NCBI GenBank assembly: GCA_964443325.1
Contig: CAYUCL010000004.1
Span: forward strand, 5,885 to 69,884
DNA: 64,000 nucleotides
Direction of reading: 5' to 3'
Origin: an uncultured Dehalococcoidales bacterium
GTDB taxonomy: Bacteria > Chloroflexota > Dehalococcoidia > E44-bin15
The notes below the pieces were generated by a model that worked only from the letters and a program-made list of their open reading frames with translations, had not been told where the DNA came from and ran no database searches. A program made the translations under genes and the position numbers. Each line of letters begins with the position of its first letter. Position 1 is the first letter of the stretch. Positions 12,751 to 36,846 of this stretch are shown in pieces.

Positions 12751-12828
<78 letters not shown>

Positions 12829-12873
12829 TAAAGCAACCAGCAACTCCTTGAGAGACATGACGTAGATAAAAAG

Positions 12874-12959
12874 GCCGGAGTGGCGGAATAGGTAGACGCG
12901 ACGGTCTCAAAAACCGTTGGGGGGCGACTCCCGTGTCGGTTCGATCCCGACCTTCGGCA
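12874..12959 (+). tRNA. tRNA-Leu (CAA)
   Basis: Long variable arm, anticodon loop CTCAAAA, T-loop GGTTCGATCC. CCA is not encoded. Confidence 0.8.
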
Positions 12960-13048
12960 TTGTTTCGAGCGCTGGCATATATAGCTGTTCCTCAGCAACG
13001 AAAAGCGTTAAGTCCAAAGAGAAACTGGAACACAAAAGGGTGAGAGAT

Positions 13049-13122
13049 TGCCGAGTTGTGTAGTGGTAGCACGGGGGACTTTGGATCCCTAAGCCCAGGT
13101 TCGAATCCTGGCTCGGCAGCCA
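13049..13122 (+). tRNA. tRNA-Gln (TTG)
   Basis: U1:A72 pair with a G73 discriminator, typical of bacterial tRNA-Gln. Anticodon loop CTTTGGA and an encoded CCA. Confidence 0.7.
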
Positions 13123-14384: not shown

Positions 14385-14459
14385 TCCCCGGTAGCTCAAT
14401 GGTAGAGCGGGCGGCTGTTAACCGCTAGGTTGTAGGTTCGAATCCTTCCCGGGGAGCCA
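14385..14459 (+). tRNA. tRNA-Asn (GTT)
   Basis: Acceptor TCCCCGG/CCGGGGA, anticodon loop CTGTTAA, T-loop GGTTCGAATCC, CCA encoded. Confidence 0.85.
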
Positions 14460-21748: not shown

Positions 21749-21837
21749 CACTATTTTTATTGATATTGACAGTAGATAGGAACGAGCCTAGACTTATCAT
21801 TGGATATGGATATACGAAATCTGAATAGTGCCCTGGA
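21749..21837 (+). repeat. Direct repeat, left copy (~90 bp); includes a truncated duplicate of the 5' end of the 24027 gene
   Basis: CACTATTTT...ACAGTAGATAG-GAACGAGCCTAGACTTATCATTGGATATGGATATACGAAATCTGAATAGTGCCCTGGAA matches 23970–24059 with a few substitutions and one indel. It encodes MDIRNLNSALEGQ* from an ATG at 21805. Confidence 0.85.
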
Positions 21838-21948
21838 AGGACAATGATAGATAAGGAAAAAGGAAATGAGTTTTAAAAATGAACCACAGCAAAAGATTGA
21901 TATTGAATAAGTAGAAGAGGTTCATACCAAACCAGTTTTATACAATTT

Positions 21949-22323
21949 GAATAGTCCCCAATAATTGACATAAAAATTACCAATTGCGATGGAAAAGGTC
22001 AGACATCCGGTCAATCAAAAAGATGGGAGGCTACAGTCTGGATTTGCTTAAAGATCAGGGAAGATAGAGTTTGGAAAGCAACTTGGTTTTCAACAGGGCT
22101 TGGAGGACTTATTACGGCATATGGAAGTGCCCTGACTGAAATGGTGAAAGGGAAAACAATAAGCGAAGCTTTGCGGATTCAAGCCGAGGATATATCTACA
22201 AGTTTGGATTTACATGAAACTGGATTTGGAGCTTGGTTTACAAGAACATTAGTAGAGGCAATCAACAATTACAATATTTATAAGTCAGCTCCATGGAAGA
22301 GAATGTATGAAAAGAAATATTAG
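21949..22323 (+). pseudogene. IscU/NifU-like scaffold remnant lacking the conserved cysteines and an in-frame start
   Basis: Translation (…TWFSTGLGGLITAYGSALTEMVKGKTISEALRIQAEDISTSLDLHETGFGAWFTRTLVEAINNY) aligns with IscU (…[62 protein letters not shown]). The first ATG in this frame is at 22141, and the Cys ligands are replaced. Confidence 0.35.
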
Positions 22324-22348
22324 AAGAATGGGGAAAGGAGGTGAAAGT

Positions 22349-22744
22349 ATGGAATTGTTAATAGCTTTCAGTACCGATGATGGTGAGAATTTGAACAATG
22401 GTCATGCAGGTGACGCCAAGTATTTCTATCTCTATAACTTTTTCGATAATAAGGAAGAGTTTGTTGAACAAAGAATGAATATCGAATTGAGGAGAGATCA
22501 ATCTCTAAAACCTGGAAGTCCAGAAATGGCCAAGGCTAGAGCTGCTGTTTTTAAGAACTTGGATGCATTGGTTGGTAAGGAATTCGGCCCAGGTCTTCCC
22601 AATTTGTTGAAGCAATTTGTCTGTGTATTGATAAGGGTAGACACTATCAGTAAGGCAATTGAAGTCGTGCGTAACAATCTGGACAGAATAAGGGAAGAGA
22701 AGGAGAAAAAAGAAGGTAGAAAACATATTGTGCTGAGACCATAG
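22349..22744 (+). CDS. NifX/NifB-like dinitrogenase FeMo-cofactor-binding domain protein with KE-rich tail
   Basis: MELLIAFSTDDGENLNNGHAGDAKYFYLY follows the MKIAxxSxDGxxxxxHFGxAxxFxIY pattern. A strong AAGGAGGTG RBS lies 7 nt upstream of the ATG at 22349 (the tracked ORF starts 42 nt earlier). Confidence 0.5.
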   Translation: MELLIAFSTDDGENLNNGHAGDAKYFYLYNFFDNKEEFVEQRMNIELRRDQSLKPGSPEMAKARAAVFKNLDALVGKEFGPGLPNLLKQFVCVLIRVDTISKAIEVVRNNLDRIREEKEKKEGRKHIVLRP

Positions 22745-22857
22745 CGGATAGTAGAGACCAATTGCAAAGATGGAGGTTGGAAGTTATTCTAAACAAGTAA
22801 AATAGCAGCAGAATAAGGGCGTTTTTTTAAACTTTAACAATGGAAGGTAAATAGAAA

Positions 22858-23247
22858 ATGGTAGCTAGAACAGACGTTAAAGAAAAGATAAAGAAAATTT
22901 ATGAGGTTTTGCCCAAATTGGATGACCAGCGATGTGGTTATAAAACTTGTGGGAAATTTGCTAAGGCAGTAGCTGAAGGAAAGGCGCCATGTTATGGATG
23001 TGTTAGTGGTGGGCCGGAGGTAGCTGCTAAAGTGTGTGAAATTATGGGAGCCAGAGTCCCTGAACAAGCAACTCGTCAGTCTGGCATTAATGCTGGATTT
23101 TACCAGCCCGCATTCGGTGGAGGTGGAAGGGTAGGAAGGGGCATGGGGCAAGGTTTTGGTAAAGGTCGGGGCATTGGACCAGGCCGAGGTATGGGTCGAG
23201 GTGGTGGCATGGGCCGAGGTTTTGGCAGGGGGCGACCTAGAAGATAA
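22858..23247 (+). CDS. RnfB-N-terminal-like Fe–S cluster domain fused to a Gly/Arg-rich (GRG-repeat) tail
   Basis: LPKLDDQRCGYKTCGKFAKAVAEGKAPCYGCVSGGPEVAAKVCEIMG resembles the RnfB N-terminal FeS domain (LPxTxCGxCGYPGCRxYAEAIxxGxA..CP). The C-terminal ~45 aa are GRGMGQGFGKGRGIGPGRGMGRGGGMGRGFGRGRPRR. Confidence 0.5.
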   Translation: MVARTDVKEKIKKIYEVLPKLDDQRCGYKTCGKFAKAVAEGKAPCYGCVSGGPEVAAKVCEIMGARVPEQATRQSGINAGFYQPAFGGGGRVGRGMGQGFGKGRGIGPGRGMGRGGGMGRGFGRGRPRR

Positions 23248-23303: not shown

Positions 23304-23873
23304 ATGTTCCCGATAATAAAAAATCAGAGAAGGACTAAAGTTTTTTATGCTTTAACCTCGATAATCTACGACTCAATAAATCCTCACATCTACACAAAAG
23401 AAATGAAAGATATTCTAATTAAAGAGATCGAGGGAGATAAGATATTGGATGTTGGAGTTGGAACTGGTTATACCACTAGGGAATCTGAAATAGCAATTGG
23501 GATAGATATATCCAAAAGGATGCTGTTTCGAGCTAATGATTATAGAGGCTCTTTAATTTTGGCTGATGCTCTCTATGCGCCCTTTATACCAGGAACTTTC
23601 GATACCATTATCTCTGCTGGCTCTCTTTATTATTTCCCTGAGCCCTTGGAAGGATTAAGAATATTTCATTCCTTGCTAAAGGCAAACGGGGTAGTTCTGT
23701 ACCTCGGCCCAAATATAAAATTTTTAAAGTTGTTGGTTCAGGTCTACAACCAAGCAGAGCTAGAAGAATTGTTTGGACATAGTAGATTTAGAATTGAGAA
23801 AATAATGGAGGTAGGACGGGGTAACATTGCCTATTTTGCTAAGGCGAGGAAGCAAAGAGAGCATACCGGGTAG
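23304..23873 (+). CDS. Class I SAM-dependent methyltransferase
   Basis: ILDVGVGTGYTT glycine-rich SAM-binding motif. Confidence 0.65.
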   Translation: MFPIIKNQRRTKVFYALTSIIYDSINPHIYTKEMKDILIKEIEGDKILDVGVGTGYTTRESEIAIGIDISKRMLFRANDYRGSLILADALYAPFIPGTFDTIISAGSLYYFPEPLEGLRIFHSLLKANGVVLYLGPNIKFLKLLVQVYNQAELEELFGHSRFRIEKIMEVGRGNIAYFAKARKQREHTG

Positions 23874-23969: not shown

Positions 23970-24059
23970 CACTATTTTGGGGACATTTACAGTAGATAGA
24001 GTACGAGCCTAGACTTATCGTTAAATATGGATACACGAAATCTGAATAGTGCCCTGGAA
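23970..24059 (+). repeat. Direct repeat, right copy (~90 bp), spanning the promoter and 5' end of the 24027 gene
   Basis: See the left copy at 21749–21837. Confidence 0.85.
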
Positions 24060-24653
24060 ACCTTATTAAAAGAAAACGCCGTCAACCAGTTGGCAAAGAT
24101 CTTAGCCTACGCCTCAAAAAAAGGCAGGATCTCCTACGAAGAGGCAGAACACGTACTTGATGATGACCCCGAGGATGCTTTGATTCTAGCTGAGCAGCAG
24201 AGGTTACTGATTCCGCTGAGATCAGTCAAAGATACGCTGGAATGGGATCATTCAGTTTTACTTCTCAAACCAGGTGAAATTTACAAGATGCCCAACGTGG
24301 TTAGGTATTTAGTAGAACAAGCTAGTAGAACCGGTCAATGGGATCCAGAATATGCTGTGGCCCAGATCTTCAGGGAGATGGGAGAGCCAAGCTGGAATAT
24401 AATGCCAGCATTGGTTAAGAAACTGGGAGAGGAAGCTAGCTATAACAAGCTCAATGCTGTTCAGATAAAGCAAGTATGTAGCCAGCTTGGGCTGGGAGGT
24501 AGGGTGGATTCACTAATCGCTGGACTCAAGGGAGCTGGAGCGATGAGCCCTAAGTTGAGTTCGATTGTTGAAGTGATCAGGGCAGGATCACCTATATATG
24601 AACTCAATCCCTCTCTTTTCATGTCGACATCTGGCAACGCAACCTCCACTTGA
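24027..24653 (+). CDS. Hypothetical protein immediately upstream of cas10 (possible HTH N-terminus)
   Basis: 208-aa ORF with no recognisable family. Its first 11 codons are duplicated at 21805. Confidence 0.4.
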   Translation: MDTRNLNSALETLLKENAVNQLAKILAYASKKGRISYEEAEHVLDDDPEDALILAEQQRLLIPLRSVKDTLEWDHSVLLLKPGEIYKMPNVVRYLVEQASRTGQWDPEYAVAQIFREMGEPSWNIMPALVKKLGEEASYNKLNAVQIKQVCSQLGLGGRVDSLIAGLKGAGAMSPKLSSIVEVIRAGSPIYELNPSLFMSTSGNATST

Positions 24654-24780
24654 TACTATTTCACTGCCTGTTAGAGCACGTCATTGCCATCCTTCAATAC
24701 CGGCCTATTTGACATCTTCCTAAGTGCCTGAGATAATTTGGTAACCCCATGGCCCTGGTTGGGCTCATGGCGGAGATGAT

Positions 24781-27201
24781 ATGTCCCAAGAAGAGAGCCT
24801 CATTCTTGCTGCTTTGCTCCACGATGTAGGTAAGTTCTGGCAACGAACTTCTCACCCGCTCGAACGGAAGGACCAAGCCCATGCCCTCCTCTCCCATCAG
24901 TTTATTCTGGACCACTTTGGCCAGAAATGGAGCCAAAGCGCCAGCCTGGCATCTGCACATCACCAACCTGACGATTACCTGGGCAAGTTGATTCAGCTTG
25001 CAGACCATCTATCGTCCCAAGAAAGGGATCACCAAGAGGAGGGCAACCCCGCTGTCAAACAGCTCCTGTCGGTCTTCTCGCAGGTTGGCTCCGGTAGCAG
25101 CCCTTATTATCTGCCTCTAAAGCCTCTGGACATTCACAGGGATCCTATCTTTCCCAAGCAAGAGACAGACAAGGAACCAGAGAAGTCCTACACTGCATTG
25201 TGGGATAACTTTGTCCAAGAAACGGCAACGGTCACGGGACTGTATGGGACAGATTTCCCAGCACTCATCAATACGTTTTATCACCTTCTGTGCAAGTTCA
25301 CCTGGTGCATCCCCAGCGCCTACAATGCGGACATCCCCGATGTCTCGCTGTTTGACCATCTCCGCACCACATGCGCCATCGCCCTCAGCCTATATCGCTC
25401 CGGCATCTCTGAGGCTGATGTGGATTTACTGCTCGCAGGCAGCTCTGATGCAGCGAAAGAGAAACAGTACCTGTCCCTGATAGGCGGCGATATTTGCGGC
25501 GTGCAGCGTTTTCTCTACACACAAACTTCCAGGGGGGTAGCCAAAGGGATTCGCGGGCGCTCGTTCTATCTGGAGCTCCTGACTGAGTTAGCAGCCCTTT
25601 GGCTGTCACGCCAGTTAGGGCTCTACACCATCAACCTGCTCTATGTCGGCGGGGGGCACTTTTATATTCTAGCCCACCACATAGACGGTCAGACGCTATC
25701 ATCTCTACGTAGGGATTTTTCACAGGCGCTATTAGAGCATCACCACGGTGCGCTGCACCTGGCTCTTGCAACTCAAGAACTGTGCCCGCAGGACTTCGGC
25801 CATTTCTCCAAAGCATTGGCTGGTGTACACAAACAGCTTGGCTGGGCAAAGCGGCGGCCATTTGGCGACCTGGCACCAGGGAAATTCTACGAAGAGATTC
25901 TCAAACCAAAAGGTGCCAGAGAACCTGCAGACGTATGCGCGGTGTGCGGGGCTGAGGGTGCGCACCATAAGCTCGGAGAGGGAGAGGAGAGAGAATGTGA
26001 CCTGTGCCATTCTCTCAAGCACCTGGGAGAGCAACTGGCGGATGCCAACTACCTCCTTATCGCCCCCAGACAAGAGGGACGGCAAGATGTTCAGGTTCAA
26101 GGATGGCAAAAGCTCTTTTTCTTTGGCCTAGGATTTGTGGTGAAGCTCTTGGATGAACCCCATCACTCGGATTTGAACAGGCTTGGCCCAGGGGCGACAT
26201 TGCTGCGACTGAACTCCACCGACTTTCTGAGCACCGAGGTAGTCAACGCTATCAAGACCGTGAAGAATCCACCAGCGCTTGGGTTTCGTTTTCTAGCCCA
26301 GGCGTCACCACGAAAGAAGGTGGAGCCTGCAGAGATTGCGGATTTTGAGACCGTGGCCCAGGCTTCTGAAGGAGTGCCTTTATTGGGTGTCTTGCGCATG
26401 GACGTGGACGACGTAGGATGGCTTTTCCAGCATGGGCTTGGCGAAGATGCCAGCATATCCAGAGTCTGCTCAATGAGTTTCCTTCTCCGTCTTTTTTTCG
26501 AGGGCTGGCTCAATAGCCTGTGTACCAGGTGGAACCCCCATGACGGGAAAGACAAGGTCTACGCCATCTATTCCGGGGGTGATGACCTTCTTATCACCAG
26601 CAGTTGGAGTGAGATAGCCGAACTTGCCTGGAATATACACCGCGACTTTTCAGAGTTTACTTGCTATAACCCCCAGGTGCACATCTCCGGCGGTACGACA
26701 GTCGATGACCCCCACCTCCCTCTGTATCAACTAATTAAAGCAGCTACAGAATCTTTGGAGAGCGGCGCCAAAAGAATGCCGGGGAAGAACGCCTTCACCT
26801 TCCTCGGCCAAACGCTCAACTGGTCACAGTTTCAGAAGGCGGGCGAGTGGCGCGATATCTTGAAGAGTATAATAGCCATCAATGGACGGATTGAAAAGGA
26901 TAAGGCGCCTCGAACCGTCCTTAATCTTTTGATGGAGCTTCACCAAAGCTACCTCGAAGGACAGAGTATGAATGACAGCAGGCGGCTGTTCCATGGGCCA
27001 ACGATTCACTACGGCCCCTGGATGTGGCACGCAGCCTATCATCTTTCCCGTATGATGGAAGGGGTAGAAGGCCCGGCCCAGGCCCAACTAGCAGAGATAA
27101 GGGAAGCTCTAATGCAAGCCGAGCGCCTGTCAGTTGAGCTTCCCCAGCTAGCACTGGCGGCACGGTGGGTGGAACTGCTCACTCGCACGGAGGGACTATG
27201 A
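24781..27201 (+). CDS. cas10: Type III CRISPR Cas10/Csm1 (HD nuclease + Palm/cyclase)
   Basis: N-terminal HD motif (ALLHDVGKF). A treble-clef zinc finger (CAVCG...CDLCHS). GGDD cyclase motif (IYSGGDDLLI). 806 aa. Confidence 0.9.
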   Translation: MSQEESLILAALLHDVGKFWQRTSHPLERKDQAHALLSHQFILDHFGQKWSQSASLASAHHQPDDYLGKLIQLADHLSSQERDHQEEGNPAVKQLLSVFSQVGSGSSPYYLPLKPLDIHRDPIFPKQETDKEPEKSYTALWDNFVQETATVTGLYGTDFPALINTFYHLLCKFTWCIPSAYNADIPDVSLFDHLRTTCAIALSLYRSGISEADVDLLLAGSSDAAKEKQYLSLIGGDICGVQRFLYTQTSRGVAKGIRGRSFYLELLTELAALWLSRQLGLYTINLLYVGGGHFYILAHHIDGQTLSSLRRDFSQALLEHHHGALHLALATQELCPQDFGHFSKALAGVHKQLGWAKRRPFGDLAPGKFYEEILKPKGAREPADVCAVCGAEGAHHKLGEGEERECDLCHSLKHLGEQLADANYLLIAPRQEGRQDVQVQGWQKLFFFGLGFVVKLLDEPHHSDLNRLGPGATLLRLNSTDFLSTEVVNAIKTVKNPPALGFRFLAQASPRKKVEPAEIADFETVAQASEGVPLLGVLRMDVDDVGWLFQHGLGEDASISRVCSMSFLLRLFFEGWLNSLCTRWNPHDGKDKVYAIYSGGDDLLITSSWSEIAELAWNIHRDFSEFTCYNPQVHISGGTTVDDPHLPLYQLIKAATESLESGAKRMPGKNAFTFLGQTLNWSQFQKAGEWRDILKSIIAINGRIEKDKAPRTVLNLLMELHQSYLEGQSMNDSRRLFHGPTIHYGPWMWHAAYHLSRMMEGVEGPAQAQLAEIREALMQAERLSVELPQLALAARWVELLTRTEGL

Positions 27202-27698
27202 CGCAGGTGGAAGGGTCTTCAGCGGAGTCTCAGCCACAAAAGGAACCGGCGTCTTCAGAGGAACTGCGCAAGATCATTGTCGACGGAGATGCCGAGGTAC
27301 TGGTAAACTGCGCCGAGCGTATAGGGAGGAAGCTGAAAGAAATGAACCTGGCGACGCATCAAATACGAGGCATCCTCGGTGCTATTCATATGATCGAGAC
27401 GACCTGGTCCTCTAATCCGGCTGAAGCACAGCGGGAGCTCCGTCTGCTGAAGCCCAAGCTGGCATATCAGTCAAAGAAAGTGAAGGAAACACTGGATGGG
27501 CAGGATGTATTTCCCGTGGAGGAATTGCGAGAGGTCATTTGCGGCGCTATTGACATCGTGCTCAAGCAAACAGACGAGCCAGAGGCAGGCGGAAAGGCAA
27601 ATGCGGGGGGGACGGAGCGCCACAACTCCTTCAGGCGCTTGGTGAGTTTCTTTGAGGCCATTGTCGCATATCACCGCTACCACGGCGGCAGGGACTAG
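27165..27698 (+). CDS. csm2: Csm2 (Cas11 small subunit); true start probably at 27195
   Basis: Small alpha-helical protein containing the LLKPKLAYQSKK motif typical of Csm2. Positioned between cas10 and csm3. Confidence 0.75.
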   Translation: MGGTAHSHGGTMTQVEGSSAESQPQKEPASSEELRKIIVDGDAEVLVNCAERIGRKLKEMNLATHQIRGILGAIHMIETTWSSNPAEAQRELRLLKPKLAYQSKKVKETLDGQDVFPVEELREVICGAIDIVLKQTDEPEAGGKANAGGTERHNSFRRLVSFFEAIVAYHRYHGGRD

Positions 27699-27707
27699 GG
27701 GAGTGTA

Positions 27708-28523
27708 ATGGCAGAAACCGAACGTAAAATCCAGTTGCATGGAAGGATATTCATCACCGGCAGCATAGAAATCGTGACTGGCCTGCACATCAGAGCGGCA
27801 AGGAGAGCTTTAGCCATTGGCGGTTTGGACAATCCTGTAGTGCGAAACCCCATTACCGGCCGCCCTTATATCCCCGGCTCCTCGTTAAAGGGAAAACTGC
27901 GCTCCCTGCTGGAAAAGCACTACAACAAGTCTCAACAATGGGCAATGGGTGGAGTTCGTATCCATGCCTGTTACAAGTTTGACGAAAAGGGAAACAGAAT
28001 ACCCGACGAAGAAGCCTACTCGAATTGTCAAATCTGTCCCATCTTTGGCATACCTGCAGGGTTCGCCGTGCTACCAACCCGCCTCATAGTGCGGGATGTG
28101 CCTCTTGACGAGAACAGCGCACAAAGGCTAGCCAGGACCAGGACGGAACTCCCCTTCACCGAGGTCAAATGGGAAACATCCCTTGACCGGGTTACCGCGG
28201 CGGCTACTCCCCGCCAGGTCGAGCGGGTGCCTGCCGGTGCCATCTTCGCCCCTTTGGAACTGGTCTACAATGTGTACGAGGATGCCGATGTGGACCGTTT
28301 CATGCACCTGCTGGACGCCATGCGGTTTCTGGAGGATGACTATCTCGGTGGCCTGGGAACCCGCGGCAGTGGCAAGATCGCTTTCCAGGAGCTTTCACTG
28401 ACCGCCCGCACCCGCGAGCGGTATATGGAGGAGAAGACTTTCGAGACAGGGTTATCCCTGAGAGATCTCATGGCCAAGGAAGAGGAGACGATGAACTGGC
28501 TACACCAGACGTTCTCCCGGTAG
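27708..28523 (+). CDS. csm3: Csm3 (Cas7 backbone RAMP)
   Basis: GGLDNPVVRNPITGRPYIPGSSLKGKLRSLLE is near-canonical for Csm3, including the G-rich loop. Confidence 0.9.
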   Translation: MAETERKIQLHGRIFITGSIEIVTGLHIRAARRALAIGGLDNPVVRNPITGRPYIPGSSLKGKLRSLLEKHYNKSQQWAMGGVRIHACYKFDEKGNRIPDEEAYSNCQICPIFGIPAGFAVLPTRLIVRDVPLDENSAQRLARTRTELPFTEVKWETSLDRVTAAATPRQVERVPAGAIFAPLELVYNVYEDADVDRFMHLLDAMRFLEDDYLGGLGTRGSGKIAFQELSLTARTRERYMEEKTFETGLSLRDLMAKEEETMNWLHQTFSR

Positions 28524-29576
28524 ATGTTGATCATGGCAGAGACATGGCTGTACAAGCTTAAGCCCCGCTCTTCCTTTCACTTCGGTGAGGGGGGCCTGGG
28601 CATTGAGGCTACGGACGAAGTCTTCCATTCCGATTCCTTTTTTGGTGCTCTGGCCATAGGTGTGAGAATGTGGGAGGGCGAGAATGCGCTGGTTGAGCTC
28701 CTCTCCCAGTTTCAGGAGCAGCCACCTTTCAGAATCACTTCCCTGTTCCCCTATGCTGGTGAGGTGCTTCTTTTCCCCAATCCCATGGTCAATCTCCCCC
28801 TTGAGGGAGAAGCCGAGGAAAAGCAAGGTATTCGGCTTAAATACGTACGCTTCATCTCCCAGGGTATCTTAGAACCAGTGCTTCGTAGCGAGCCTCTGGA
28901 TGGGCATCTAATCAGGGATAACCTTTGTCAGGGTGGAAGGGTGTGGCTTACGCAGCAGGAGCGCACCGCCTTGCCGCTAGCAGGAAATGAACCTATCCTG
29001 TGGCGACGCCACATCGTGACCAAGGTTGCCGTGGATCGGCTGGGTATGGCTTCACATAGCTATTACGCCGCACAGGTTGGTTTCTCCCCTGGCTGTGGTC
29101 TCTATTTCCTCCTCGAAGTAGAAGACCCTGCTTCAAAAAGGCTTGTGGAAAGCGCACTATATTATTTATCTGAGGCTGGACTTGGTGGCGAAAGGAGCGC
29201 TGGTCATGGCCAGTTTTCGTTCGAGTCCGCCAGCCCATTTGCACCATTCTGGCCTACGGATGGGGACTCGTTCATCACCCTCTCGCTTTATCACCCCACA
29301 CTGCCTGAGCTGGAGGCCGGTGTCCTAGACGGACAGGCCGCCTACGAACTTACTCAGAGGGGCGGGTGGGTGAACTCTCCAGAGCGAGCGGGGCAGAGGC
29401 GCAAGTCCGCCTCCTTCATCGGTGAAGGGTCTGTGCTATGCTCCCTGGGCAAGCCAAGCTATGGGGAACTGGTAGATGTTACACCGGAACTAGAGCCCGA
29501 GAAGCACCCTGTATATCGCTACGGGTTTGCCTTCCCCATTGGAGTTCATAGAAGGGTGGAAGTCGATGAGCCGTGA
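28524..29576 (+). CDS. csm4: Csm4 (Cas5-group RAMP)
   Basis: N-terminal YKLKPRSSFHFGEGG...SDSFFGAL is typical of Csm4. Its position in the operon also fits. Confidence 0.8.
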   Translation: MLIMAETWLYKLKPRSSFHFGEGGLGIEATDEVFHSDSFFGALAIGVRMWEGENALVELLSQFQEQPPFRITSLFPYAGEVLLFPNPMVNLPLEGEAEEKQGIRLKYVRFISQGILEPVLRSEPLDGHLIRDNLCQGGRVWLTQQERTALPLAGNEPILWRRHIVTKVAVDRLGMASHSYYAAQVGFSPGCGLYFLLEVEDPASKRLVESALYYLSEAGLGGERSAGHGQFSFESASPFAPFWPTDGDSFITLSLYHPTLPELEAGVLDGQAAYELTQRGGWVNSPERAGQRRKSASFIGEGSVLCSLGKPSYGELVDVTPELEPEKHPVYRYGFAFPIGVHRRVEVDEP

Positions 29577-30669
29577 ACTGCACAGCACCTATCGGCTGAC
29601 CCTGGAGACCCTCTCACCTATTCACATCGGCTCAGGGAAAGGTGAGTTGCTCCTGGACTACGATTTCATTGTGGAGGGGAACCGTGCACTGGTGGTGAAC
29701 CTGGAACGGCTGCTGGGAGAGATAGACGACAAGAGGCTCAAAGCGGCAGGAGCGGATCCAAAGCTGAGTCTTCTGCTGGCCCCAGAAGAGATAGAGCGAG
29801 TCAAAGCCTATGAGATAGATATCGCCGCAGGGCACCCCGACCGGATTCGGGAGCATGTGAAGGATGCCTTCGACAAGCTTTACATTCCCGGAAGCTCGAT
29901 AAAGGGGGCGCTGCGCACCGCCCTGGCCTGGTCCGCCCACCACGGCGCACTAACGCTGGGCGGGCTGGGTGAGCGCAATGACCCCACAAAGGCCGATGAC
30001 TCGGTTGAGGCGGGAATATTCGACTACGATCCGAGAGACACCCATCGCGAACTGCTACGCGCTATGCGGTTAACCGACGCATACCCGCAGGACGGTGTCA
30101 TGCCCAGAGCATTGCCGGTTACCGTCTTTTCGCTTTACGGTCAGCCACCCTCTCTCAAACCAAGGGGAGAGCCAACTTTTTTAGAGGTGATCCCCAAAGG
30201 CACCACCATTGAGTCTACCCTGACTCTGGATAGATATGTTCTTCGGCCTGAACGCAGGGTACGGCGAATGTATCACTTTCGCAGGCGACACTTTTTCGAC
30301 CAGTTGGTGGAACGCTGCCGTGCATTCTCCGCAGAGATAGTTAAGCTCGAGCTTGACTTCTATAGCGATTGCGGCATCTGGAAGCTGCAGGGGTTCTACG
30401 AAACGTTGGCGAGGAGACAGGCAGCACTGAAAGATAGCGAATTCCTCCTGCCCATCGGTTGGGGCACCGGTTGGTTGGGCAAGACCCTGGGGACCAAGTT
30501 GACCCCAGGTGAGGTGAGCACGGTTGCCGAGACCTATCACCTGGAGAAGTGGCACGGCTCGCTATTCCCCAAAGTCTTCCCCAAGACCAGGCGGCTCGTT
30601 GGCGATGGGCAAGCTAGAGAACCTCTCGGCTGGGTGAGAATTAGCCTGCAGGGCCCCACCGGCCGTTGA
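29566..30669 (+). CDS. csm5: Csm5 (Cas7-group RAMP)
   Basis: YRLTLETLSPIHIGSG and LYIPGSSIKGALRTAL RAMP motifs. The likely ATG at 29566 overlaps the end of csm4. Confidence 0.8.
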   Translation: MSRELHSTYRLTLETLSPIHIGSGKGELLLDYDFIVEGNRALVVNLERLLGEIDDKRLKAAGADPKLSLLLAPEEIERVKAYEIDIAAGHPDRIREHVKDAFDKLYIPGSSIKGALRTALAWSAHHGALTLGGLGERNDPTKADDSVEAGIFDYDPRDTHRELLRAMRLTDAYPQDGVMPRALPVTVFSLYGQPPSLKPRGEPTFLEVIPKGTTIESTLTLDRYVLRPERRVRRMYHFRRRHFFDQLVERCRAFSAEIVKLELDFYSDCGIWKLQGFYETLARRQAALKDSEFLLPIGWGTGWLGKTLGTKLTPGEVSTVAETYHLEKWHGSLFPKVFPKTRRLVGDGQAREPLGWVRISLQGPTGR

Positions 30670-30780
30670 GCCTGCCTGGAAATAGCCATAAACGAAAGCT
30701 GGCTGCCATAAAGAACGCTAATAGTCACAAGGAGCGCCTGGTTCACTAATCCTCGACACTTTCTGGAGGTAACAAAACAA

Positions 30781-31623
30781 ATGCTGCTGAGCGCCATCAT
30801 AGCGCTACAAGCCCGCAAGGAAGCATTATTGCCCCCCTACCTGGGCAAGGCAGCACATGCGCTATTCCTTCGACTTGTGGCCACTACTGACCCCAACATG
30901 GGAGCAAAGCTACACGATGATAGTGAGGCCAAGCCCTTCACTGTGTCGGGCCTTGTGGGCCTGCCCAGGAGGAGCGCAACAATGCATATCAATGCTGGCC
31001 AGGTTTGCTTATTGCGCTTCACTAGCTATGAGGACGACCTCTCAAACCTGCTGGCGGAAAAGGTGTTGCCATCGTTGCCTCAGGAGTTTGAACTTGAGAA
31101 CGCCCTCTTTTCAGTCGAGGATGTCTTCATGCAAAGCGGCGCTCATCCCTTGAGCAGACAAACGTCATATCAGGAGTTAGCTCAAGGGCATCTGCTCGAT
31201 GCCAGAAGCGCCCCCACAAGAGTCAAACTCTTTTTCATGTCGCCTACTACATTCAGGTCGGGGGGGAAGAATATACCGTTGCCGCTTCCAGGATTGGTGT
31301 TTGGCAGCCTCGCCGACCGATGGAATGCCGTGTCGCCAATCACCATCTCCAGAGAGGTAAGACGTTACGCTGAGGAATTTGTGGCAATTTCCCAATGCCA
31401 GCTCAAAACACGTACGGTGGAAATTGCTGGAGGCAAACAGGTAGGTTTTATCGGTTCGTGCTCGTATGTCGCGCTGAGGCATGACGCATACTGGCGTAGG
31501 GTTATGAACCTGCTGGCGGAGTTCGCCTTTTACAGCGGCGTGGGCTATAAGACAACCATGGGGTTTGGCCAGACGTTCACCCACCGTTTCGCTGCAAAAC
31601 GCTCCACCTCGCAATCAAGCTGA
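30781..31623 (+). CDS. cas6: Cas6 crRNA endoribonuclease
   Basis: The C-terminal glycine-rich loop GVGYKTTMGFGQ matches the Cas6 GhGxxxxxGhG signature. 280 aa. Confidence 0.8.
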   Translation: MLLSAIIALQARKEALLPPYLGKAAHALFLRLVATTDPNMGAKLHDDSEAKPFTVSGLVGLPRRSATMHINAGQVCLLRFTSYEDDLSNLLAEKVLPSLPQEFELENALFSVEDVFMQSGAHPLSRQTSYQELAQGHLLDARSAPTRVKLFFMSPTTFRSGGKNIPLPLPGLVFGSLADRWNAVSPITISREVRRYAEEFVAISQCQLKTRTVEIAGGKQVGFIGSCSYVALRHDAYWRRVMNLLAEFAFYSGVGYKTTMGFGQTFTHRFAAKRSTSQSS

Positions 31624-32168: not shown

Positions 32169-32243
32169 GGGCTCGTAGCTCAGCGGCAGAGCGATCGGCT
32201 CATAACCGATTGGTCGTAGGTTCGAATCCTGCCGAGCCCACCA
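32169..32243 (+). tRNA. tRNA-Met (CAT), elongator-type (could alternatively be tRNA-Ile2)
   Basis: Acceptor GGGCTCG/CGAGCCC, anticodon loop CTCATAA, T-loop GGTTCGAATCC, CCA encoded. It lacks the initiator hallmarks. Confidence 0.8.
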
Positions 32244-33473: not shown

Positions 33474-33800
33474 CTATAGTTGCCCCTTCTGCTTTTCAAA
33501 CTTCCATCGATCATAGTATATGAACATGATATTACATCTAGCAGCCTTCCTTAACAAATGAGAACAACTATCCTGTCGGCACGCTATAACCAATTTGAAT
33601 ATATCCACACTGCGCAAATAATCCACTAAACATGCTATATCTCCATCGCCTGTTATGACTACAGCCTTATGGTTATTGTTAATAATTATCATTGCGTGTA
33701 GAACTATCTCGGCATCACAATTCCCCTTGATTTTTCCGTCAAGCAATGGGAGCACAGTCTTGTAGACTAGAGTGTACTCATAATCTTTTATGTCACTCAA
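33474..33800 (-). CDS. NYN-domain (LabA-like) protein, probably a truncated fragment
   Basis: GNCDAEIVLHAMII...AVVITGDGDIACLVDYL matches the C-terminal half of NYN/LabA domains. It lies in an AT-rich region, and 108 aa is short for the family. Confidence 0.5.
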   Translation of the reverse strand: MSDIKDYEYTLVYKTVLPLLDGKIKGNCDAEIVLHAMIIINNNHKAVVITGDGDIACLVDYLRSVDIFKLVIACRQDSCSHLLRKAARCNIMFIYYDRWKFEKQKGQL

Positions 33801-33900
33801 ATAATATTGTCAACATTTCAAATTGATCCACTACCGGATTTTTGTTGTTGTTATTGACAGTCCCCCTACCCTAAATTAGAATGAGGTAAGACGGTGAAAG

Positions 33901-34602
33901 GTGAGCAAAGGAAGACAGCTATACGAGCTTCAAGAGGTTGACCTGGAGATAGAGGCGAAGCAGGAAGCTCTGTCTAACGTGCAGAGCCGATTAGGCCAGA
34001 GCCAGGCTCTTGATGAGGCTCGCGCTAATCTTGCTACACAGAAGAACTGCGTTTATGAGCTAAATGCAAGCCAGCGAGCTGGGGAGTGGGAGGTGGAGGA
34101 CCTGCGAACGAAGGTAGCCGATATAGAGCAGAAGCTTTATGGTGGCGCGCTGAAAAACCCCAAAGAGCTGGCAAGTCTTCAGGAGCAGGCGGAACATCTT
34201 AAAAAAAGACGTAGGGAAGAGGAAGATAAAGTACTTGACATAATGACTGAATTAGAGGCGGCACAGGCGAAATTAGCGATGATAAGCCAGGAGGTAGAAA
34301 GTTTTGAGAAAAGCTGGAAGGAGGAGCAGACCGAGCTTTCCAGGGAGCAGGATAGGTTGAGCACTAATTTAGCTAACCTTGAGCAGAAGCGAAAAGACCT
34401 CGGCTCAAGGATCGATGCAGCGAGCCTGAGGCTTTATGAAGAACTAAGGACAAAGAAACAGGGCAGGGCAGTGGCCAAGGTTGAACAGGGCATGTGTCAG
34501 GGATGCAGAATTGTCCTCCCGGTGAGAGAGTTACAGCGAGCAAGAGCAAGTCAAGAATTGGTGCAGTGTGGTAGTTGTGAGAGGATTCTTTTCGTGAGCT
34601 AG
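33901..34602 (+). CDS. COG1579-type coiled-coil protein with C-terminal C4 zinc ribbon
   Basis: Long coiled-coil region followed by CQGCRIVLP...CGSCERIL. Confidence 0.7.
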   Translation: MSKGRQLYELQEVDLEIEAKQEALSNVQSRLGQSQALDEARANLATQKNCVYELNASQRAGEWEVEDLRTKVADIEQKLYGGALKNPKELASLQEQAEHLKKRRREEEDKVLDIMTELEAAQAKLAMISQEVESFEKSWKEEQTELSREQDRLSTNLANLEQKRKDLGSRIDAASLRLYEELRTKKQGRAVAKVEQGMCQGCRIVLPVRELQRARASQELVQCGSCERILFVS

Positions 34603-34605
34603 GCG

Positions 34606-36018
34606 ATGAGAACGATTGGCTATTTTCGAGTAACCGAAGAGACTGGAAGGTCCCCCTCACTGGTGGAGCAGCAGGAGGGTTTTGCCCGCTTTTGCCAGGA
34701 ACGGGGTTACCAGCCGGTAATGACATTTGTTGATACGGGCTCAACAGGGAAAGTTGGCCGAACTCAGTATCAGCGCATGCTCAGCTACATCCGGAGGGAT
34801 GGAACGGACACTGTAGTTGTGGTGAAAAGTCTTAGCCACCTTCACCCCGACGTGCAGGAATTGATGTATCGCCTTATTGAAATTGATGCCCTCGGGGCAA
34901 AGGTTCTCTCAATCGATGAAGAGCTTGCCAGCCCCTTGGAAACGGTTATCCAGATTTGGTCTACCCGGCGCCAGAGTGGAATAAGAGGGGATGCTGTGAG
35001 GGAGGCGATGAAGCTCAGGGCAGTCAGAGGAAAAGGATTGGGCAAGCCACCCTATGGCTATAAGCTGGGTGCCGACAAGAGGCTGGAGATCGTCCCTGAG
35101 GAGGCAGCCAATGTAGAACTCATCTATCAGCTTTATGTTCAAAAAAACATGGGCGTGCGCCTCATCGCTCGATACCTGAATGAGCAGGGCATCACCACCA
35201 GAAGAGGTGGCCTGTGGAGCATCGTTGGCATCCGAGATATCCTGCGCAATCGGGCATATCTGGGGACATCCTCCCGTTTCGGCTTCAGGGTTCCTGACAG
35301 CCACCGACCGATAATCAATCATGAAACCTTCAACAAAGTGCAGGAACGACTTACCGCCAAGACAAAGCCAAGGGGTCGCGTCCAAAGGTCGCCCTTCCCT
35401 CTATCAGGTCTGGCTTACTGTGGATACTGTGGCAACAGGATGACCGGCGTGAACCGCAGTCAAACCTGGACAACGCTCAAGAAGGGAGGGAAGAGGAAGG
35501 GGGAGTATCGCTACTACCAGTGCCAGTCGAGAACTAATCAAAGCGTTTGCCAATACCATACAAGGAGAGCTGAAGATTTAGAGGGCTTTGTGCTCGGTAC
35601 ACTACGGAGTTATAACAACCTTGAGGCTCTGGTACAATTGACGAAGGTGCGTGATTTCAGTGACGAACCGTCAGAGCACACGCGGCTAGAGAGAAAGCTG
35701 AAGACTCTGGATCGAAAATTCCGAGATCATCTCAACCAGGCGACCGATGGTGCCATCCCCTTGGAAGAATTCCGTGTTGTGAGTGGGGATTTGATTTGGG
35801 AGAGGCGGCTTTTGGAGGAAAGGATCGCCCTTCTTAAAGCTGAAGCAAAGCAGGAGATAACCTCCGAGCACCGGAAGGATTATATGTTGGAGAAGCTAGA
35901 AGAGCTTCAAGAGCGATGGGACACCATGACCTCACCGGCAAGAAAAGCGTTGCTTCAGCATATAATCGAACGCATTGTTGTCTACGACGACCATGTGGAA
36001 ACTATCCTCAGGCTGTGA
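34606..36018 (+). CDS. Large serine recombinase homolog with substituted catalytic residues (probable pseudo-recombinase)
   Basis: Resolvase-like N-domain (GYFRVTEETG) followed by a recombinase domain (GKPPYGYKL) and a zinc ribbon (CGYCGNRM...CQSR). The nucleophile Ser is replaced by Thr, and the DRLGR motif is replaced by SLSHLHP. Confidence 0.6.
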   Translation: MRTIGYFRVTEETGRSPSLVEQQEGFARFCQERGYQPVMTFVDTGSTGKVGRTQYQRMLSYIRRDGTDTVVVVKSLSHLHPDVQELMYRLIEIDALGAKVLSIDEELASPLETVIQIWSTRRQSGIRGDAVREAMKLRAVRGKGLGKPPYGYKLGADKRLEIVPEEAANVELIYQLYVQKNMGVRLIARYLNEQGITTRRGGLWSIVGIRDILRNRAYLGTSSRFGFRVPDSHRPIINHETFNKVQERLTAKTKPRGRVQRSPFPLSGLAYCGYCGNRMTGVNRSQTWTTLKKGGKRKGEYRYYQCQSRTNQSVCQYHTRRAEDLEGFVLGTLRSYNNLEALVQLTKVRDFSDEPSEHTRLERKLKTLDRKFRDHLNQATDGAIPLEEFRVVSGDLIWERRLLEERIALLKAEAKQEITSEHRKDYMLEKLEELQERWDTMTSPARKALLQHIIERIVVYDDHVETILRL

Positions 36019-36458: not shown

Positions 36459-36846
36459 TGAAGGTGGCCAGGTAAACCGGGTGACCGCTCCCCGATTATC
36501 GGGGGGAGGAAAGTCCGAGCTCCACCGGGCAGGAGGCTGGGTAACTCCCAGGCCCCGATAACGTGAGTTATCGGGGACGGAAAGTGCCACAGAAACACAC
36601 CGGTCGCCTTAGGCGACTAAGGGTGAAATGGCGAGGTAAGAGCTCACCGCCCCGGTGGTGACACCGGGGGCAGGGCAAACCCCCTCCGGAGCAAGACCAA
36701 ATAGCGGGGAAGAGGACGCCCGGCCTCGTTACAACCCCCGGGTGGGTCGCTTGACCCTGATGGTAACATCAGGGCTAGATAGATGGTCACCGCCCCAACA
36801 CTGTTGGGGTACAGAACTCGGCTTATAGGTTTGCTTGGCCGGCTCT
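36459..36846 (+). ncRNA. rnpB: RNase P RNA (bacterial type A)
   Basis: Conserved blocks GGAAAGTCCGAGCTCCACCGGGCAGG, AGTGCCACAGAAA, GGTAAGAGCTCACC, AGGGTGAAATGG and ACAGAACTCGGCTTA. P1 pairing GGCCAGG…CTTGGCC. Confidence 0.9.

Follow-up and report, generated by a model that had tools for sequence, protein, structure and literature searches.

In RnfB and CFeSP, the PF04060-type iron-sulfur (Fe-S) domain is a one-cluster [4Fe-4S] module for electron entry, and in CFeSP this domain is the point at which electrons enter for reactivation of the corrinoid. Here we describe a gene at positions 22858..23247 (forward strand, stop codon included) of a 64,000-nucleotide stretch of DNA from an uncultured Dehalococcoidales bacterium (assembly GCA_964443325.1, contig CAYUCL010000004.1, positions 5,885 to 69,884; hereafter the window). 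Its 129-residue product joins a variant of the PF04060 domain to a glycine-arginine (Gly-Arg) repeat tail. This Fe-S/Gly-Arg protein is probably a soluble small iron-sulfur protein, of a subfamily encountered almost exclusively in Dehalococcoidia, and we estimate a probability of roughly 0.5 that it contributes to the maturation of metallocofactors, as a small module for redox work or the handling of clusters that carries a cationic tether. Its identity as a protein of the Fe-S-domain/DUF5320 type without relation to CRISPR can be stated with more confidence than this overall reading, and any specific partner can be named only with less.

RnfB/RsxB and the CFeSP large subunit (AcsC/CdhE) give significant hidden Markov model (HMM) and pairwise matches to the window protein, and the spacing of Cys2-4 in LP...C-G-x-x-x-C...GG is common to all of them. 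When the predicted three-helix fold is compared with known structures, the CFeSP domain comes out on top, at E-values that are not significant. The window protein differs from both in having an invariant Asp in place of Cys1 and two additional invariant Cys. Unlike RnfB it has no transmembrane anchor and no ferredoxin-type domain, and unlike CFeSP it has no TIM-barrel or corrinoid-binding part. It stands alone, as 129 residues with a Gly-Arg tail, and no rnf or acs operon surrounds its gene.

Fe-S proteins also supply the electron for the reduction of Co(II) to Co(I) in PduS/PduO- and RACo/CFeSP-type systems. In one description (PMC2982820), PduS is the Fe-S corrin reductase for an adenosyltransferase. 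The present family resembles these systems in that related Dehalococcoidia have the variant Fe-S domain joined to an adenosyltransferase of the CobA type, but PduS and RACo are unrelated to it in sequence, the window gene has no gene for a corrinoid enzyme beside it, and the fusion is rare. The tail invites two further comparisons. DUF5320 (PF17253) comprises uncharacterised small proteins of bacteria and archaea with a Gly/Arg-rich N-terminal half and a coiled-coil C-terminal half. The eukaryotic glycine-arginine-rich (GAR) or RG/RGG regions of the fibrillarin, nucleolin and FUS type likewise place RG dipeptides among hydrophobic and aromatic residues in a disordered, strongly cationic segment. 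In contrast to these, the window tail is bacterial, alternates strictly between Gly and another residue, contains a single RGG and is carried by a metal-binding domain, where theirs accompany RRM, KH or helicase domains. The resemblance to GAR regions is compositional only and does not show homology.

Results

The N-terminal domain (residues 1-66, 22858..23055, forward strand) was delimited by Pfam and NCBIfam matches, an RnfB alignment, invariant residues and an AlphaFold2 (AF2) model. PF04060 ('FeS') matches residues 18-49 (22909-23004) over HMM positions 1-32 of 33, with E 1.4e-7 and 31.6 bits for the full protein against a gathering cut-off of 23 bits, and the N-terminal 76 residues alone score 33.1 bits (E 4.7e-8). 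The best matches in the Protein Data Bank (PDB) are RnfB chains, 8ahx_B (E 1.5e-5) and 7zc6_B (E 5e-5), which align to residues 3-72, followed by the CFeSP large subunit. An earlier note on this DNA, made from the sequence alone, had recognised an RnfB-type Fe-S domain and proposed a profile comparison with PF04060; the scores above bear it out. Identity as RnfB itself was rejected. The NCBIfam models of RnfB gave 42 bits against 445 (NF041836) and 38.9 bits against 68.7 (TIGR01944), and they match only in part, at about residues 4-72 and model positions 33-99. The protein starts MVARTDVKEKIKK and contains no hydrophobic segment that could correspond to the RnfB membrane anchor. No Rnf genes were found in the related loci, and the neighbours in the window are NifU-like, NifX-like, methyltransferase and cas genes.

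In the RnfB alignment, D23 stands at the position of Cys1, and C26, C31 and C48 stand at those of Cys2-4. Three of the four Cys of the PF04060 signature C-x2-C-x4-C-x16-C are present (C26, C31 and C48), and an invariant Asp takes the place of the first. C45 and C48 form an extra CxxC, and the helix that follows holds a fifth Cys, C60. The loss of the first Cys and the extra CxxC had both been seen correctly in the earlier note, which did not mention C60. The mapping of ligand Cys that it called for gives Cys at three of the four canonical positions and Asp at the first. Among 150 representatives at 50% identity, all nine sequences with Asp at the Cys1 position carry C45 and eight of them carry C60, whereas 114 of the 125 that retain Cys1 are without either extra Cys. 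This covariation suggests compensation for the lost ligand. The candidate ligands are D23, C26, C31, C45, C48 and C60. C45 may be the fourth ligand, or D23 may ligate the cluster while C45 and C60 serve otherwise.

AF2 modelled the domain alone with a predicted local distance difference test (pLDDT) score of 71 and a predicted TM-score (pTM) of 0.57, with helices at residues 2-17, 31-40 and 53-63. The three best Foldseek matches of this model are all CFeSP [4Fe-4S] N-terminal domains, 4c1n_G, 2ycl_A and 4djd_C, with probabilities of 0.97, 0.93 and 0.66, respectively, TMq of 0.51-0.52 and E-values of 0.26-1.1, which are not significant. The best match has a root-mean-square deviation of 2.5 Å over 55 columns.

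A search of 5.8 billion database proteins returned 473 matches at E <= 1e-3, and the lengths, identities and tails of the family are described from the best 120 of these. The 120 proteins are 68-100% identical to the window protein across the aligned part and 122-158 residues long (110 of them 123-135 residues), and all have PF04060 and the tail. The pattern of Asp with C45 and C60 occurs in 119 of them. The matches from genome bins are almost all from uncultured Dehalococcoidia/Dehalococcoidales, and members are labelled in the databases only as '(Fe-S)-binding protein' or 'hypothetical'. The window protein (P0001 in our numbering of proteins) is recorded in identical copies for 7 contigs. 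In an alignment of 41 sequences, Y15, L18, P19, L21, D22, D23, C26, G27, C31, G32, A37, G41, C45, C48, S50, G51, G52 and C60 are invariant, so that all five Cys and both D22 and D23 are kept. The literature searched contained no paper on this combination of domain and tail, and mentioned PF04060 and DUF5320 only in passing. Searches of the literature on CooC, NifX and Dehalococcoidia and on RGG in prokaryotes gave nothing specific.

Behind the domain lies a variable linker (residues 67-86, 23056..23115, forward strand, defined by alignment) with a conserved G-F-Y-Q-P motif at its end, and behind the linker the tail (residues 87-129, 23116..23244, forward strand), which was defined by composition, register, AF2, the ratio of nonsynonymous to synonymous substitution rates (dN/dS) and sister proteins that match PF17253. 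The tail is indeed the Gly-Arg repeat that had been described before: its 43 residues include 22 Gly, 10 Arg, 3 Met, 2 Phe and 2 Pro and no Asp or Glu, and its net charge is +11. It is a strict (G-X)n repeat in which X alternates between R/K/Q and M/L/F/I, and with six RG, six GRG and one RGG it qualifies as a clustered RG/RGG region. Over the last 40 residues of the family tails, Gly accounts for 81% of the residues in one register but for 15% in the other, and most X positions hold Arg or a hydrophobic residue (M, L, F, I, V). Odd lengths (123, 125, ... 135) in 110 of the 120 listed members indicate that insertions and deletions occur in whole G-X units. AF2 predicted no secondary structure for the tail (pLDDT < 50). 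The full-length model (pLDDT 51) was too poor to use and was set aside.

Codon-level comparison of the window gene with 12 relatives (dS mostly 0.4-1.4) gave dN/dS of about 0.08-0.19 for the Fe-S domain, about 0.3-0.7 for the linker, the highest of the three segments, and 0.14-0.46 for the tail. The tail is therefore translated and under stronger constraint than the linker, and it is under purifying selection though it is predicted to be disordered. These data bear on whether the tail could be an artefact, that is, untranslated, called in the wrong frame over G-rich repeat DNA, or part of a gene that is decaying in this lineage. Such an artefact might be suspected because the NifU-like gene upstream is a pseudogene, because an antisense open reading frame (ORF) of 142 residues overlaps the gene region, and because the DNA of the tail is a G-rich repeat in which Tandem Repeats Finder detected an 18-nt period (23191-23235). 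However, the frame is open in more than 100 homologues, length changes come as whole G-X units, the C-terminal GRGFGRGRRGR is nearly invariant, and the tail keeps its low dN/dS at dS of about 0.4-2. Selection and conservation thus largely refute an artefact, which is extremely improbable, and the gene encodes a genuine, conserved small protein of uncultured Dehalococcoidia. A Shine-Dalgarno-like GGAAGG, read from the sequence, lies 10 nt 5' of the ATG start (22842-22847, forward strand).

The earlier note had also hinted at DUF5320. The hint proved right, though only by an indirect route. PF17253 matched neither the full protein (E <= 1) nor the tail alone (E <= 10), so that direct membership of DUF5320 was rejected, and the link was made through sister proteins. 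The gathering cut-off of PF17253 is 27 bits, and P0298, P0300, P0303 and P0124 score 39.2, 38.0, 42.8 and 30.8 bits; P0317, at 21.7 bits, is below it. All four proteins above the cut-off carry the variant domain and linker of the window protein, and P0300 is 72% identical to it over residues 1-83 including the GFYQ linker. In P0298, P0300, P0303 and P0317, the GFYQ linker leads into GRGMG/GMGMG repeats and these into a coiled coil, and the N-terminal part of the PF17253 HMM falls on the Gly/Arg(/Met) repeats. P0124 and the group P0271-P0291 are further fusions of PF04060 and PF17253. The window tail thus has the same place after the GFYQ linker as the repeat of these sister proteins. In view of the shared domain and linker and the match of PF17253 to the repeat, the tail is by position the Gly/Arg half of DUF5320, and the 129-residue family has the architecture of these sister proteins less the coiled-coil half: the window protein ends GRGRPRR and AF2 predicted no helix beyond residue 74.

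Other tails occur on related domains. In the representative search, sister small proteins with a canonical four-Cys PF04060 domain carry Gly-Arg-rich, His-rich or coiled-coil tails. Five of these proteins (P0137, P0156, P0180, P0183 and P0186) have His-rich C-terminal tails, such as HHHGHHHGGHG, in place of Gly-Arg. Tails of this kind are reminiscent of nickel chaperones. A paralogue of 115 residues in the same islands combines a canonical four-Cys PF04060 domain with a coiled-coil tail and has no Gly-Arg repeat (L006 11820-12167, L015 13784-14131, L016 4953-5309 and L024 651-998, in our numbering of loci); in effect, the two halves of DUF5320 are split between two Fe-S-domain paralogues.

These relatives raise the question of whether the tail itself binds metal. 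A Met/Arg-rich repeat might bind a soft metal ion directly, much as the His-rich tails may do, and the protein would then be a metallochaperone working with a CooC-type ATPase and not an electron carrier. The His-rich tails of the five sister proteins would fit, as would an average of 3.5 Met in the family tails, the long GMGMGRGMG runs in P0298, P0300 and P0317, and the CooC-type neighbour with its aligned CxC metal site described below. Yet Met is freely exchanged with L, F, I and V, the dominant Arg and Gly are poor metal ligands, and the window tail has only 3 Met. We regard a metal-binding tail as quite unlikely.

Similar Gly-Arg-rich modules are found on other small metal-binding proteins of the same islands. 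Zn_ribbon_8 proteins (L006 8307-8606 and L015 10313-10609) carry GRGMGRGLGRG... as their C-terminal tail and are encoded in overlap with a methyltransferase gene of the FkbM type; another locus of this kind is L007 3176-3460. A stand-alone gene in the same kind of island (L017 10644-10868, strand -) encodes a protein of 74 residues in which an MPRGDGTGP...GRG N-terminus precedes a Zn ribbon, and it matches positions 1-39 of the DUF5320 HMM with 26 bits. On this distribution, (G-R-G-hydrophobic)n, the N-terminal half of DUF5320, could be a portable tag in anaerobes that gathers small metal-binding proteins, namely the Fe-S domain, the Zn_ribbon_8 proteins and the second type of Zn ribbon, into a hub for metallocofactor assembly or repair. 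The gathering might proceed by multivalent, condensate-like association or by docking on a CooC/MinD-type ATPase, the methyltransferases might tune it by arginine methylation, and the Asp/five-Cys site would hold a deliberately labile or unusual cluster that is passed on, instead of a fixed redox centre. Such a tag is a speculative and rather improbable explanation.

The tail could also be a substrate of the neighbouring S-adenosylmethionine (SAM)-dependent methyltransferases, with arginine methylation regulating its interactions as in eukaryotic GAR domains. A methyltransferase gene lies one to three genes from a Gly-Arg-module gene in four different arrangements: in the window (23304-23873), in L023, in L029-L032, and in L006, L007, L009, L014 and L015, where the FkbM-type gene overlaps the gene of the RG-tailed Zn ribbon. 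However, the islands contain four to five methyltransferase genes per 12 kb, so that adjacency is expected by chance. The enzymes are not orthologous between arrangements and resemble small-molecule or ArsM/UbiE-type methyltransferases, and no bacterial signature of the protein arginine methyltransferase (PRMT) type was found. A role as methylation substrate is very unlikely.

The gene neighbourhood in relatives is conserved. On the 5' side of the Fe-S/Gly-Arg gene the order is FeS_assembly_P, ferredoxin, thioredoxin-reductase-like, methyltransferase and thioredoxin/DUF8180 genes and, optionally, NifU_N and NifX-like genes. On the 3' side follow a CbiA-family ATPase, an ArsR-type helix-turn-helix (HTH) gene, an FkbM-type methyltransferase, the RG-tailed Zn ribbon, DUF1684 and a second NifX-like gene. 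The ATPase lies directly 3' of the Fe-S gene in L006, L009, L014, L015, L017, L020, L021 and L024, and an HTH gene comes after it in L006, L014, L015, L017, L020, L021 and L024. The NifU_N, NifX-like, Fe-S/Gly-Arg and ATPase genes are consecutive in L009-L011. In the PDB the ATPase matches best to CooC1 (3kje; E 5.8e-21), a chaperone for nickel insertion; the match is full-length and aligns the CxC metal motif. The intact NifU_N-like orthologue (151 residues, L009 5075-5530) contains no Cys and cannot therefore be a conventional IscU-type scaffold. In L009-L011 the variant Fe-S domain is also fused to a CobA-type cob(I)yrinic acid a,c-diamide adenosyltransferase (L009 7636-8364). The fusion forms 7 clusters (P0328-P0334), and the variant motif (D/C45/C60) is kept in all five sequences read. 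As the fusion is so rare, we rejected it as a strong functional clue and use it only as a hint.

Two proteins, P0070 (158 residues) and P0306 (130 residues), have a NifX-like N-terminus (MELLIAFGTDD...) in frame with the Fe-S/Gly-Arg protein. Both probably arose by deletion or by chimeric assembly. They are independent evidence that the NifX-like and Fe-S genes lie side by side in other contigs. Relatives also have an ORF of 33 residues (L006 6387-6488 and L009 6381-6482) that overlaps the stop of the Fe-S gene and the start of the CooC-like gene, which may be a spurious call or a sign of translational coupling.

In the window, the Fe-S gene is the third of a cluster on the same strand. A promoter-like site, TTGACA-17-TAGACT (21766..21794, forward strand; a consensus match only), precedes the cluster. 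The first gene is NifU_N-like (21866..22323, forward strand) and was identified by its translations, by tblastn with the L009 orthologue and by a weak Pfam match to NifU_N. Two in-frame TAA codons, the first of them at codon 15, interrupt it together with a TAG at 21952 and a shift of frame near 21955-21962, and it is a pseudogene in this lineage. The second is a NifX/NifB-like gene (PF02579 by Pfam; 22307..22744, forward strand) with 88% identity to L009 5556-5951; NifX-like relatives begin MELLIAF, which corresponds to position 22349 in the window. The NifX-like and Fe-S genes probably form one operon. A class I SAM methyltransferase, identified by Pfam and NCBIfam, follows 57 nt past the stop codon (23304..23873, forward strand). 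It was rejected as a conserved partner: it does not stand beside the gene in relatives, and comparison with the other loci gave no homologue at E <= 1e-5. A riboswitch or another known RNA was sought with Rfam at gathering thresholds, and there was none close to the gene and none in six loci of relatives. The only Rfam matches in the window are tRNAs and RNase P RNA, among them a four-tRNA cluster (12753-13119), one further tRNA gene (14385-14456) and a bacterial class A RNase P RNA (36469-36841; 291 bits).

A complete-looking type III-A effector operon of cas10/csm1, csm2, csm3, csm4, csm5 and cas6 (24781-31623, forward strand) starts about 1.5 kb downstream of the Fe-S gene, with two genes in between, and the earlier note had remarked on this proximity. 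A link to CRISPR is not supported. Apart from the window, cas genes were seen beside the Fe-S gene only in L001-L003, three metagenome contigs in which the protein and the gene order are the same, and no cas gene stands beside it among the genes called or compared in about 25 other loci (L006-L032). Conserved co-occurrence with cas genes across lineages was not seen; in 15 genome-bin loci, and in the other metagenome loci with called or compared genes, the Fe-S gene is accompanied by NifU-like, NifX-like, CooC-like and ArsR-like genes, genes of the thioredoxin system and methyltransferase genes. The cas operon has a strong promoter-like site of its own (24709-24737; 11 of 12 matches and a TG extension). 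A tRNA gene (32169-32240) and a large serine recombinase gene (34606-36018) follow it, which suggests an inserted cassette. Between the methyltransferase gene and cas10 lies an AF_2141-like gene (PF27374, 208 residues; 24027-24653, forward strand), which is also found next to or near the Fe-S gene in L022 (7078-7815), L020 (823-1095) and L024 (3960-4124). Its recurrence in unrelated Dehalococcoidia contigs shows it to be part of the redox island, not of the CRISPR genes. A scan for CRISPR arrays found none in the window, and neither cas1, cas2 nor csm6 was found among the neighbouring ORFs scanned. We rejected the link because no conserved adjacency was found, and the other features agree with this. 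The CRISPR adjacency of the Fe-S/Gly-Arg gene is incidental, and the protein has no bearing on CRISPR biology. The region after the cas operon (33474-36018) comprises an NYN-domain ORF, a CT398-like/Zn_ribbon_9 gene and the serine recombinase gene.

Discussion

The usual neighbours of the Fe-S/Gly-Arg gene, namely the Cys-less NifU-like, NifX-like, CooC-type ATPase, ArsR-type regulator and thioredoxin/ferredoxin genes, point to electron relay or cluster handover. The electron-entry role of the domain in RnfB and CFeSP and its occasional fusion to an enzyme that requires Co(II)-to-Co(I) reduction point the same way and make one or the other of these roles the most likely. The three-helix PF04060 domain would most likely bind one Fe-S cluster through C26, C31 and C48 together with C45 or D23, and with ligands swapped in this way the cluster would presumably differ in potential or in lability. 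The protein would then most likely relay low-potential electrons, or hand over a labile cluster, in a CooC/NifX-type system for metallocofactor maturation or repair. The tail may act as a disordered, polycationic and flexible tether to an acidic partner or a polyanionic surface.

Several points weigh against this proposal. Binding of the cluster and the identity of its ligands are inferred from sequence, and the idea of the tail as a tether is entirely conjectural. The Foldseek E-values of 0.26-1.1 are non-significant owing to the small size of the domain, and the AF2 models reach no more than moderate confidence (pLDDT of 71 for the domain and 51 for the full length). The 64-kb window contains no CooC-like gene and no thioredoxin block, and its NifU-like gene is a pseudogene, which weakens the argument from neighbourhood. 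Many redox and methyltransferase genes without relation to one another share the island, so that proximity names no specific partner. The CobA fusion forms only 7 clusters among thousands of CobA proteins.

The strongest competing explanation follows the earlier note: the protein would sense redox state through its Fe-S domain and, through its Gly-Arg tail, bind RNA or DNA or promote condensation; one variant adds a functional tie to type III CRISPR-Cas. Non-Cys ligation by Asp is typical of some sensor clusters and could be counted in its favour. The tail, with six RG and one RGG and a charge of +11, weakly resembles the RG-rich tail of the eukaryotic ribosomal protein S10e, and an ArsR-type HTH gene follows the CooC-like gene in relatives. 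On the other hand, the protein has no known nucleic-acid-binding domain, Pfam and NCBIfam scans detected no accompanying RNA-binding domain in it, and sister small Fe-S proteins bear His-rich or coiled-coil tails instead. The CRISPR variant could appeal to Cas10 encoded about 1.5 kb downstream, but it meets the objections given above: cas genes are adjacent only in the window and L001-L003 and absent among the genes called or compared in the other loci, and the operon has its own promoter-like site and surroundings that suggest an inserted cassette. A sensor of this kind is not supported and is unlikely, and we prefer a redox or cluster-handling module with a cationic tether.

Our study indicates that the Fe-S/Gly-Arg protein combines known kinds, PF04060 and DUF5320, in an uncharacterised variant form. 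The ligand swap and the modular Gly-Arg tag are noteworthy, and nothing in the protein is categorically new. As a natural variant of the RnfB/CFeSP-type domain with Asp and two extra Cys, it can teach how ligand sets tune the potential and lability of Fe-S clusters. A prokaryotic GAR-like tail on a metalloprotein is also of interest for the study of disordered cationic regions. If the proposed role is true, the function of DUF5320, a widespread but uncharacterised family, would become approachable for the first time. The gene also draws attention to a little-understood island of redox and metallocofactor genes in Dehalococcoidia of marine sediments, organisms that depend on corrinoid and Fe-S enzymes.

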